From positions 91,529-155,528 of the forward strand of contig CAYWNT010000001.1 of assembly GCA_964459725.1 (NCBI GenBank): DNA of 64,000 bases. The letters are read 5' to 3'. The translations under genes and the position numbers were made by a program. The stretch is from an uncultured Gammaproteobacteria bacterium (lineage in GTDB: Bacteria; Patescibacteriota; Patescibacteriia; Patescibacteriales; UBA12075). Of this stretch, positions 54,092 to 54,535 are shown piece after piece (position 1 is the stretch's first letter; every line of letters starts with the position of its first letter). The notes under the pieces were generated by a model. It made no database searches. It was not told the DNA's origin and saw nothing but the letters and a program-made list of their open reading frames with translations.

Positions 54092-54106
54092 AATAAAGCC
54101 GTTGTA

Positions 54107-54320
54107 GACCGACATAAAAGTCGGGACTCCGACCGAAGCGTCGGAGCTCAACCCGAAGGATCCCCCTTGGGGGCGGTACCCACCCGAAAGTCCCGTTCGG
54201 TATGGGCGGGGAGCATCCCGAGTACTCGGGAGAAGGTGTCGTAATTTGTTGAATAAAATTAAAGTATCTAGCTTGCATTTCGAAGTTTCCTGTCTGTCGA
54301 CAGGCAGATAGCGTAGTAGT
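54107..54320 (+). other. GC-rich, hairpin-dense non-coding segment of unknown class
   Basis: Visibly GC-rich against AT-rich flanks. Hairpins include ccgac-ataaaa-gtcgg (54109-24), ctccgac-cgaagc-gtcggag (54127-46), cccc-cttg-gggg (54162-73), ccgaa-agtcccg-ttcgg (54184-200), tcccgag..ctcggga (54216-31) and ctgtctg-tcga-caggcag (54290-307). gaaagtcccg recurs at 54186 and 54507. Confidence 0.5.
54289..54307. repeat. Member of a short GC-rich palindrome family (CCTGYCTGYCGRCAGRCAGG-like)
   Basis: cctgtctgtcgacaggcag. Related copies are cctgtctgccg...caggcag (54469-54507, in the T-loop of the tRNA-Thr-like gene) and cctgcctgccggcagacagg (56336-56355, in the tRNA-Tyr fragment). Confidence 0.55.
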
Positions 54321-54392
54321 GCCATCGTAGCTCAGTGGTAGAGCACTTCCATGGTAAGGAAGGGGTCAGCGGTTCAAGTCCGCTCGATGGCT
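54321..54392 (+). tRNA. tRNA-Thr (anticodon GGT at 54353-54355)
   Basis: The cloverleaf reads gccatcg ta gctc agtggta gagc a cttcc atggtaa ggaag gggtc agcgg ttcaagt ccgct cgatggc t. No CCA is encoded. Confidence 0.9.
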
Positions 54393-54535
54393 CAAAGGGT
54401 GTAACAATAGAGCACTTCCATGCGTGCCCCGTGTTTATCTACGGGGGTAAGGAAGGGGTCTCGGGTTCCCTGTCTGCCGATTTATGTGCCTGTAGGCGTA
54501 CAGGCAGAAAGTCCCGACAACGGCTCAATAAAAAT

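Follow-up and report, generated by a model that had tools for sequence, protein, structure and literature searches.

The small single-domain GIY-YIG nucleases known as Ssn bind directional hairpin repeats (NTS/SRM) that flank their own genes and cut only single-stranded DNA (ssDNA) nearby, in a repeat-gene-repeat layout that their authors describe as insertion sequence-like (Chenal et al. 2025, PMC11893778). Neither tRNA nor Patescibacteria is mentioned in that paper. Here we describe a 64-kb stretch of a contig from an uncultured, ultra-small Patescibacteria bacterium (CAYWNT010000001.1, positions 91,529 to 155,528; hereafter the window, numbered from its first letter), in which an intact tRNA-Thr(GGU) gene lies within the divided remains of another and a nearby tRNA-Tyr gene is accompanied by a GIY-YIG nuclease gene and hairpin repeats. 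The explanation that we favour, with moderate confidence, is that the locus at 54098-54525 is a wrecked resident tRNA-Thr(GGU) gene housing a derivative, without an open reading frame (ORF), of a nuclease/hairpin cassette that targets tRNA genes and brings a replacement tRNA with it.

Described systems with similar parts

By analogy, the Ssn enzymes are the best functional precedent for the nuclease encoded in the window, and ssDNA cleavage by this 81-aa protein is predicted accordingly from theirs. Both consist of a single GIY-YIG domain, of about 80-95 aa, with no DNA-binding domain; at 81 aa, the protein falls within the 150-aa limit for single-domain members. As in the Ssn systems, directional, GC-rich hairpin repeats of 20-50 nt stand on either side of the gene (here at 55556-55589 and 56083-56116, both on the forward strand), and the repeats have spread to further sites. 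The cassette differs from Ssn in that its repeats sit in the loops of tRNA genes and its gene is welded to a tRNA. Moreover, the double hairpin of its repeat (CCACCGCC..GGCGGGGT.CCGCC..GGCGG.A) does not fit the published SRM pattern.

A second precedent comes from phage T4, where the gene for SegB, like the nuclease gene here, lies among tRNA genes and is thought to promote the inheritance of itself and of the flanking tRNA sequence (PMC2330249). Enzymes of the SegB type possess a C-terminal DNA-binding domain and cut double-stranded DNA, whereas the protein discussed here is the catalytic domain alone, and hairpin modules and duplicated tRNA halves like those of the cassette have not been described at Seg loci. 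Insertions in structured-RNA genes are also known from the same phylum: the rRNA genes of the Candidate Phyla Radiation (CPR) contain non-intron insertions at the tips of stem-loops, some with GIY-YIG ORFs (PMC11270868), and group I introns interrupt Patescibacteria tRNAs (PMC13011429). Like the cassette, these insertions occupy stem-loops at their tips or bases. They interrupt the only functional copy, however, and are presumably removed or tolerated, while the cassette hairpins sit in disabled copies beside an intact gene. The CPR rRNA insertions with GIY-YIG ORFs are a possible relative of the cassette.

No description of GIY-YIG/hairpin cassettes at tRNA genes was found in the searchable literature, and the recurrent nuclease/hairpin process at tRNA genes described below appears to be undescribed. 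The Thr locus itself can be regarded as an explained relic, and its family as a variant of Ssn-like elements, free-standing homing nucleases and target-restoring tRNA elements.

A resident tRNA-Thr gene divided around an intact copy

The window, from metagenome SUTE22-1, has a GC content of 38% and its proteins match those of Parcubacteria-group metagenome-assembled genomes (MAGs). Three intact tRNA genes were called in it by ARAGORN (used also in intron mode) and Rfam (at gathering thresholds and at E <= 10): Thr(GGU) at 54321-54393, Tyr(GUA) at 55906-55989 and Trp(CCA) at 57151-57222. These genes and the other parts of the tRNA loci delimited below lie on the forward strand. The nesting at the Thr locus is not an assembly artefact, since three independent assemblies (two from ENA and one from JGI) are 100% identical over 53900-57700.

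The outer, resident gene begins 12 nt past the intrinsic terminator (54069-54086, a 7-bp stem followed by a T run) of a TPR gene (53171-54034, with TPR Pfam matches). Its disabled 5' half (54098-54241) has GC-rich hairpins throughout. In order, it comprises tRNA positions 1-8 (gccgttgt, 54098-54105), two hairpins (54109-54124 and 54127-54146), positions 9-14 (AGCTCA, 54145-54150), a further hairpin (about 54151-54172), the piece GGTA (54175-54178), a two-hairpin module HP1-AGCA-HP2 (54179-54231) and the piece GAAGGTGTCG (54232-54241), which resembles tRNA positions of about 39-48. There follows an AT-rich spacer of 79 nt (54242-54320), placed where ORF-bearing cassettes have their nuclease ORF and containing a 19-nt palindrome, CCTGTCTGTCGACAGGCAG (54289-54307). 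The intact inner tRNA-Thr(GGU) comes next (54321-54393; 68.4 bits), with acceptor GCCATCG/CGATGGC and T-stem AGCGG/CCGCT; it is presumed to be a functional replacement copy. Last is the disabled 3' part of the resident gene (54408-54525), which starts at TAGAGC and, aligned to intact tRNA-Thr, covers positions 20-72 in three blocks (54408-54422, 54447-54468 and 54509-54525). These blocks are separated by a 24-nt hairpin at positions 34/35 (54423-54446, its placement ambiguous by 1 nt owing to flanking G residues) and by a 40-nt palindromic block in the T-loop, between TTC and AAGT (54469-54508). The displaced halves are thus interrupted at 8/9, in the D-loop, after GGTA, at 34/35 and in the T-loop. 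An intrinsic terminator lies past the outer 3' end (54536-54551). The inner tRNA itself lacks a terminator, so its 3' trailer is probably the 3' pseudo-part.

An earlier, sequence-only reading of this DNA had pointed to the features between 54098 and 54525, and all are present, including the 5' acceptor strand at 54098, the 24-nt hairpin and the 40-nt T-loop block. It had also placed a separate structured RNA in a GC-rich segment of about 215 nt upstream of the intact gene. Only about 135 nt of that segment is GC-rich (54107-54241, GC about 0.62), the remainder being the 79-nt spacer, and the GC-rich part is in fact the hairpin-studded 5' half of the resident tRNA, with further tRNA pieces.

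The identity of the outer gene emerges from comparison with related genomes, whose loci or contigs are labelled here with L-numbers. As it stands, the outer gene gives no contiguous match to RF00005. To be recognized as a tRNA it had to be stripped of its inserts by hand and given the D-loop bases that it lacks; so reconstructed, it forms a perfect Thr(GGU) cloverleaf in ARAGORN. Gene order is kept in relatives (ScpA, ScpB, peptidase S11, TIM, aldolase, TPR protein), and tRNA-Thr(GGU) is next after the TPR gene in the 64 orthologous TPR/tRNA-Thr loci that were retrieved. The reconstructed gene is identical at 72 of 72 positions to the intact tRNA-Thr at the orthologous position in L116 and L159, and at 69 of 72 to that in L089; the 54 tRNA-derived bases of its 3' part match the intact orthologues in L116 and L159 without exception. 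Because of this identity with uninterrupted genes at the same position, the outer gene is the resident orthologue, by all appearances now broken and non-functional.

Two natural alleles are involved. The outer acceptor, GCCGTTG/CAACGGC, is the commonest, found in 14 of 27 tRNA-Thr(GGU) genes, and the inner acceptor is a different one that occurs also in L027. Inner and outer genes differ by 10 substitutions, all at paired stem positions, and their central 39 nt are identical. It had rightly been noted from the sequence that the T-stem and acceptor of the two genes differ by paired changes only, and this preserved pairing had been read as a sign of selection on a folded outer molecule. The stems proved instead to be the commonest allele of the clade, inherited before the split, and the compensatory differences are those between two functional alleles rather than the product of selection after the gene was divided.

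Among the 64 orthologous loci, 46 are simple, 14 have 5' pseudo-copies upstream of the intact gene, and 18 have some pseudo-copy. Given this mixture, the pseudo-copy state has been gained and lost among lineages. The simple loci are the empty sites for which a search of related genomes had been proposed, and they support the suggestion of a mobile insertion that brought its own replacement tRNA, as do the orthologous allele of the outer gene and the recurrence of the nesting, with a GIY-YIG gene, at tRNA-Tyr and in dozens of genomes.

It might be supposed instead that this is a genuine multi-intron or split tRNA, in which the outer transcript is spliced by an unknown route, with removal of the inner tRNA, to yield a second functional tRNA-Thr. 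The outer stems are indeed all intact, with the inserts in loops, and Patescibacteria do carry unusual tRNA introns (PMC13011429). Excision, however, would leave a D-loop without its GTGG, with G18 and G19 absent; removal of the three inserts originally named for excision would leave that loop too short, so that no complete tRNA results. Furthermore, the 5' half holds the redundant piece resembling positions 39-48, in relatives the hairpins replace tRNA arms (L007, L005, L011 and L081) or the copies are truncated, and an intact copy is never absent: it stands alongside here and in 74 of 76 related loci, which sets the locus apart from archaeal-type multi-intron and split tRNAs. Nor does the locus resemble a group I intron. 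Group I introns are ribozymes of about 200-300 nt within the anticodon loop, whereas here the D-arm holds the large insert, the anticodon loop contains an insert of only 24 nt, and the inserts are too small for introns of this class. The proposed Rfam search gave no Intron_gpI match at E <= 10 in 53950-54700, divergent Patescibacteria tRNA-Thr introns being known to escape RF00028 (PMC13011429). At either threshold, Rfam recovered only the inner tRNA at the Thr locus and no intron, ribozyme or small-RNA family, and the intron mode of ARAGORN likewise returned only the inner tRNA, both for the whole locus and for the 3' part alone. We give the idea of a spliced outer tRNA almost no credence.

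One relative does present an interrupted tRNA-Thr at the orthologous site. In L129 (2380-3540), the 5' stub gccgttgt and a 198-aa ORF precede a tRNA-Thr(GGU) that is split after GGT by about 230 nt. This interruption, which Rfam does not detect, probably corresponds to the divergent 36/37 group I introns of PMC13011429. The 198-aa ORF was considered as a LAGLIDADG protein; the resemblance is by eye alone, with no Pfam match, and the assignment is not claimed.

Nuclease, hairpin module and tRNA in a recurrent cassette

A complete example of the nuclease-bearing nested cassette lies 1.2 kb downstream of the Thr locus, at tRNA-Tyr. The disabled 5' half of this gene (55499-55598), delimited from the sequence and with a model of the hairpin module termed X, contains positions 1-21, a half-X hairpin in the D-loop (55521-55538), a canonical X of 34 nt at positions 34/35 (55556-55589; 47.5 bits, E 1e-9) and then TAAATCTAC. 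The start codon of the 81-aa single-domain GIY-YIG nuclease gene (55607-55852; PF01541, E 1.3e-15) is 17 nt past this X. The intact tRNA-Tyr(GUA) follows, with its own terminator (55995-56024), and beyond it are two 3' pseudo-copies. The first (56074-56166, own terminator at 56175-56194) consists of 9 nt of anticodon stem, another canonical 34-nt X at 34/35 (56083-56116; 49.8 bits, E 3e-10) and the rest of the tRNA. The second (56326-56370, own terminator at 56379-56401) extends from the T-loop to the 3' end and is interrupted by the palindrome CCTGCCTGCCGGCAGACAGG (56336-56355). The full cassette layout, then, is resident 5' part, X, a short 3'-side tRNA piece, a gene for a single-domain GIY-YIG nuclease of about 80 aa, intact tRNA, spacer or terminator, X and resident 3' part.

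In the nuclease, PF01541 spans residues 4-69 of 81, the catalytic-type Y, Y, R, H and E residues are conserved, and homologues measure 79-120 aa. The protein is the catalytic domain alone and lacks the arrangement of classical homing endonucleases, an N-terminal GIY-YIG domain joined to a C-terminal DNA-binding domain. Among proteins of solved structure, its closest relatives are the UPF0213 members EF2693 and BH0048 (family-profile E ~1e-11), followed by the structure-specific nuclease SLX1; the I-TevI domain reaches only E = 0.14 against the same profile. A search of NCBIfam with the nuclease gave no match.

The family was surveyed by scanning GTDB species genomes with an alignment of 10 closer GIY-YIG sequences, which yielded 80 loci, mostly in Patescibacteria with some in MAGs labelled Ignavibacteria, Bacteroidota, Omnitrophota and KSB1. 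The linkage of nuclease to tRNA is tight. Four loci reach the end of a contig, and 74 of the 76 informative ones adjoin an intact tRNA: in 66 it lies at or just past the end of the ORF, often 0-20 nt after the stop codon, and in 8 just upstream of the ORF. In one of the remaining two, the expected tRNA contains a run of N; in the other, a 3' tRNA end lies upstream. Tyr and Ser tRNAs predominate, alongside some for Thr, Lys and Gly, and partial copies of the adjacent tRNA occur in 63 of the 80 loci. Breakpoints of these copies are strikingly regular (34/35 for Tyr, 35/36 for Ser). The cassette family is widespread in Patescibacteria and is present also in Ignavibacteria, Bacteroidota and Omnitrophota MAGs. 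The same nuclease family is found in eight loci of MAGs labelled with these other phyla or KSB1 (L034, L038, L040, L050, L056, L057, L066 and L069), three of which (L050, L056 and L069) have the X module too; this suggests cross-phylum transfer or, alternatively, contamination during binning.

The X module is about 35 nt long and consists of two hairpins, with the consensus CCACCGCC-loop-GGCGGGGT-(G/C)CCGCC-loop-GGCGG(C/G)A. Pairing was assessed in two alignments, both selected or fitted using the structure: in 35 copies chosen by regular expression 97.8% of cells pair, one pair being G-C in 18 and C-G in 17 with zero mismatches, and in 53 distinct copies from a covariance model 98.7% of cells pair, with changes on both sides at 9 of 14 pairs. 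Shuffled and slid controls fall far below the figures for these 53. Nearly all copies are on the strand of the tRNA and ORF (41 of 42 regular-expression hits and 52 of 56 nhmmer hits), and the nuclease start codon follows the end of X at a median distance of 19.5 nt, with 13-30 nt between them in most loci. It brackets the ORF and intact tRNA in at least nine loci, including this window, and is found also in D-loops, at the junction of variable arm and T-arm, and in T-loops of disabled copies. A second palindrome family, Y (54289-54307, 54469-54508 and 56336-56355 in the window), is a dispersed intergenic repeat in relatives. A 20-nt Y palindrome, CCTGCCTGCCGGCAGGCAGG, is present in L104, L129, L148 and L149, often just past genes; in the window it occurs at tRNA loci only.

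The strict co-orientation of X with transcription, its high conservation and covariation and its position 13-30 nt upstream of most start codons raise the question of whether these sequences act as RNA, with the flanks under selection as a platform for processing or stability of the inner tRNA, as a regulator of nuclease translation, or as a decoy or antidote for the nuclease. At the Thr locus, the probable co-transcription of the 3' pseudo-part with the inner tRNA, the sole terminator being past the outer 3' end, and the loop positions of the inserts would agree with such a role. Yet no Rfam family matches, and the folding energy of both Thr-locus flanks is only modestly below that of shuffled sequence (z = -1.8). 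The Thr hairpins are not conserved as a set, the orthologous loci being mostly simple; disabled copies vary between genomes in length, breakpoint and number; and Ssn enzymes are inactive on RNA (PMC11893778). A functional structured RNA is, on this evidence, quite doubtful, and the suggestion that a structured precursor regulates tRNA-Thr maturation has no direct support.

The Thr locus fits an ORF-less form of the same cassette, decayed or non-autonomous. Relatives have Thr cassettes both with an ORF (L085, L007 and L033) and without one (L123, L086, L005 and L105); in the latter, a 5' stub is followed by GC-rich hairpins and then by an AT-rich spacer that leads up to the intact gene. Moreover, hairpins of the Thr 5' half have blast homologues in L081, L011 and L078. 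The hairpin CTCCGACCGAAGCGTCGGAG recurs in L078 directly before CTCAGCTGGTA, a Thr D-loop sequence. The X-like module HP1-AGCA-HP2 is homologous to one in a tRNA-Lys 5' pseudo-half upstream of the GIY-YIG ORF of L081, and its second hairpin is found again in the 3' Thr pseudo-copy of L011, likewise starting at TAGAGCA.

A third cluster in the window lies at tRNA-Trp (57151-57620 as a whole), where the intact gene called by ARAGORN at 57151-57222 is followed by two 3' fragments that run from the T-loop to the 3' end (57376-57408 and 57559-57595), each with its own terminator-like hairpin. The one past the last fragment, TCCTGAGTACTCAGGG (57605-57620), resembles HP2 of the Thr locus, TCCCGAGTACTCGGGA (54216-54231), with paired changes. 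Gaps between tRNA copies are 14-200 nt, and the GC-rich perfect hairpins of the 64-kb window cluster at its tRNA loci.

Serial 3' fragments with their own terminators after tRNA-Tyr and tRNA-Trp are reminiscent of tandem att sites, and the anticodon loop and T-loop are reportedly known crossover sublocations of integrases. The loci could on these grounds be scars of classical tyrosine-recombinase islands that entered tRNA genes with replacement 3' ends and were later deleted. Such islands and prophages do resemble the cassette: they insert in a tRNA gene, carry a replacement portion, leave a partial copy and have breakpoints in the anticodon loop or T-loop. But they measure many kb rather than about 0.3-0.6 kb, and the cassette has no integrase, often replaces the 5' part or the whole gene, and leaves displaced fragments bearing hairpin modules. 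No recombinase or transposase Pfam domain is encoded by the neighbouring genes, from about 6 kb upstream to 8 kb downstream. Only 60-200 nt separate the fragments, duplication affects 5' fragments as often as 3' ones, and the consistently linked gene is a GIY-YIG nuclease (74 of 76 loci). An integrase origin is therefore very improbable.

Proposed origin and persistence of the cassettes

The series of events that we propose begins with a nuclease for which X and its variants would be cis sites, recognized on one DNA strand by analogy with Ssn. The enzyme would break DNA at the loops of tRNA genes, and repair or recombination from cassette-bearing DNA would then install the cassette. Patescibacteria are believed capable of taking up DNA. 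At the Thr locus, the resident gene would have been split in its D-arm by a short cassette with a complete replacement tRNA-Thr(GGU). With a working tRNA on board the insertion would be viable and, afterwards, indispensable: the cassette should not be easily lost because it supplies the working tRNA while the resident copy is destroyed. The hairpins may add to this stability, in that they cut the homology of the displaced halves to the intact copy into blocks of at most 22 nt, which would hinder deletion. Repeated breakage near hairpins could also yield tandem arrays of fragments, as in L063, L050, L083 and L159.

Downstream of the intact tRNA-Tyr gene, the array in L063 (2951-3919) repeats the last 23 nt of that gene 12 times in tandem, once every 86 nt, and comparable arrays are present in L050, L083, L159 and L005. 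ORF and tRNA may also overlap. In L007 (1692-1990) the GIY-YIG ORF runs into tRNA-Thr with its stop codon in the variable region, so that processing by RNase P would strip the stop codon from the nuclease mRNA, and overlaps are found in L008, L010 and L020 as well.

Several points weigh against this account. The Thr locus has no nuclease ORF, and its hairpins are not canonical X, since the X covariance model does not match there; its link to the GIY-YIG family is drawn from architecture and from hairpin homologies of 16-20 nt. Likeness to Ssn is a matter of layout and not of assignment to cd10448, the nearest solved relatives being UPF0213 and SLX1, and a search of both strands of the window for the published degenerate SRM motif gave 0 matches. 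Since GIY-YIG nucleases hydrolyse DNA and have no strand-joining activity, insertion has to rely on repair by the host, and there is no evident means by which the intact tRNA of a cassette-bearing genome escapes the predicted cleavage. Given the identical 39-nt core, a foreign origin of the inner gene requires either that the donor was a close relative or that gene conversion followed. Many 5' pseudo-halves match the intact tRNA beside them at 100% identity, which fits duplication in situ or gene conversion as well as import. Finally, the sequences used for comparison come almost entirely from MAGs or metagenome contigs, many of which have N gaps in exactly these regions.

Some of these points could also reflect local duplication and scrambling of tRNA-Thr, by slippage or unequal crossing-over, with generic REP-like palindromes entering the dead copy and no nuclease cassette at the Thr locus. 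The missing ORF and canonical X and the identical core suit this possibility, as do the dispersal of Y among intergenic regions of relatives and the tandem arrays in L063, L050, L083 and L159. Ten substitutions confined to stems, with each version a different natural allele, are unexpected from a recent local duplication, however, and homologues of the Thr hairpins occur elsewhere in modules that precede GIY-YIG ORFs. The clustering of GC-rich hairpins at the tRNA loci of the window also speaks against it, as does a layout (5' stub, module, 3'-side piece, spacer, intact tRNA, 3' copy) that is the same as in ORF-bearing cassettes. We judge local duplication unlikely, and continue to prefer a cassette that brought a replacement tRNA.

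More tentatively, and as a proposal that we think may well prove wrong, the GIY-YIG nucleases and X could represent an undescribed class of selfish element that targets the loops of structured-RNA genes (tRNAs and possibly the CPR rRNA insertions) in Patescibacteria and some other phyla. Such an element would be addictive, destroying an essential tRNA while delivering its replacement, and its hairpins would serve both as ssDNA recognition sites and as homology breakers. It would give Ssn-like small GIY-YIG nucleases a genomic target, the tRNA-gene loop, and a selfish life cycle, and ssDNA tools might gain a new enzyme/site pair in X and its nuclease.

At the Thr locus, the "tRNA within a tRNA" is explained without new RNA processing, by a cassette that is widespread and tied to tRNA genes in a phylum known for RNA-gene insertions. 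Annotators should be warned that hairpin-bearing, tRNA-like fragments in these genomes are relics and not novel intron-bearing tRNAs.

There is also a bearing on assembly. Assemblies of relatives very often break or are N-gapped exactly at clusters of tRNAs and pseudo-tRNAs (L085-L088; Logan contigs L003, L004 and L092; N runs in L005, L007, L011, L083 and L086). The nuclease/hairpin cassette may account for the frequency of such breaks and gaps in CPR MAGs, whose tRNA counts and synteny are likely affected. For the window itself, Logan contigs end inside the intact tRNAs, at about 54356 and 55942. Population polymorphism was considered as the cause; graph branching from tRNA cores common to related community members was judged likelier, and nothing is inferred from these breaks.

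Two further ORFs, both on the forward strand, deserve mention. Between the Thr locus and a GNAT gene lies a very basic ORF of 40 aa (MKKHHKVGNRPSRPGYRTPSDFKARK..., 54677-54799), which is called in public assemblies. Much farther upstream, a single open reading frame of 8899 aa (2413-29112) would constitute a gene for a giant protein.

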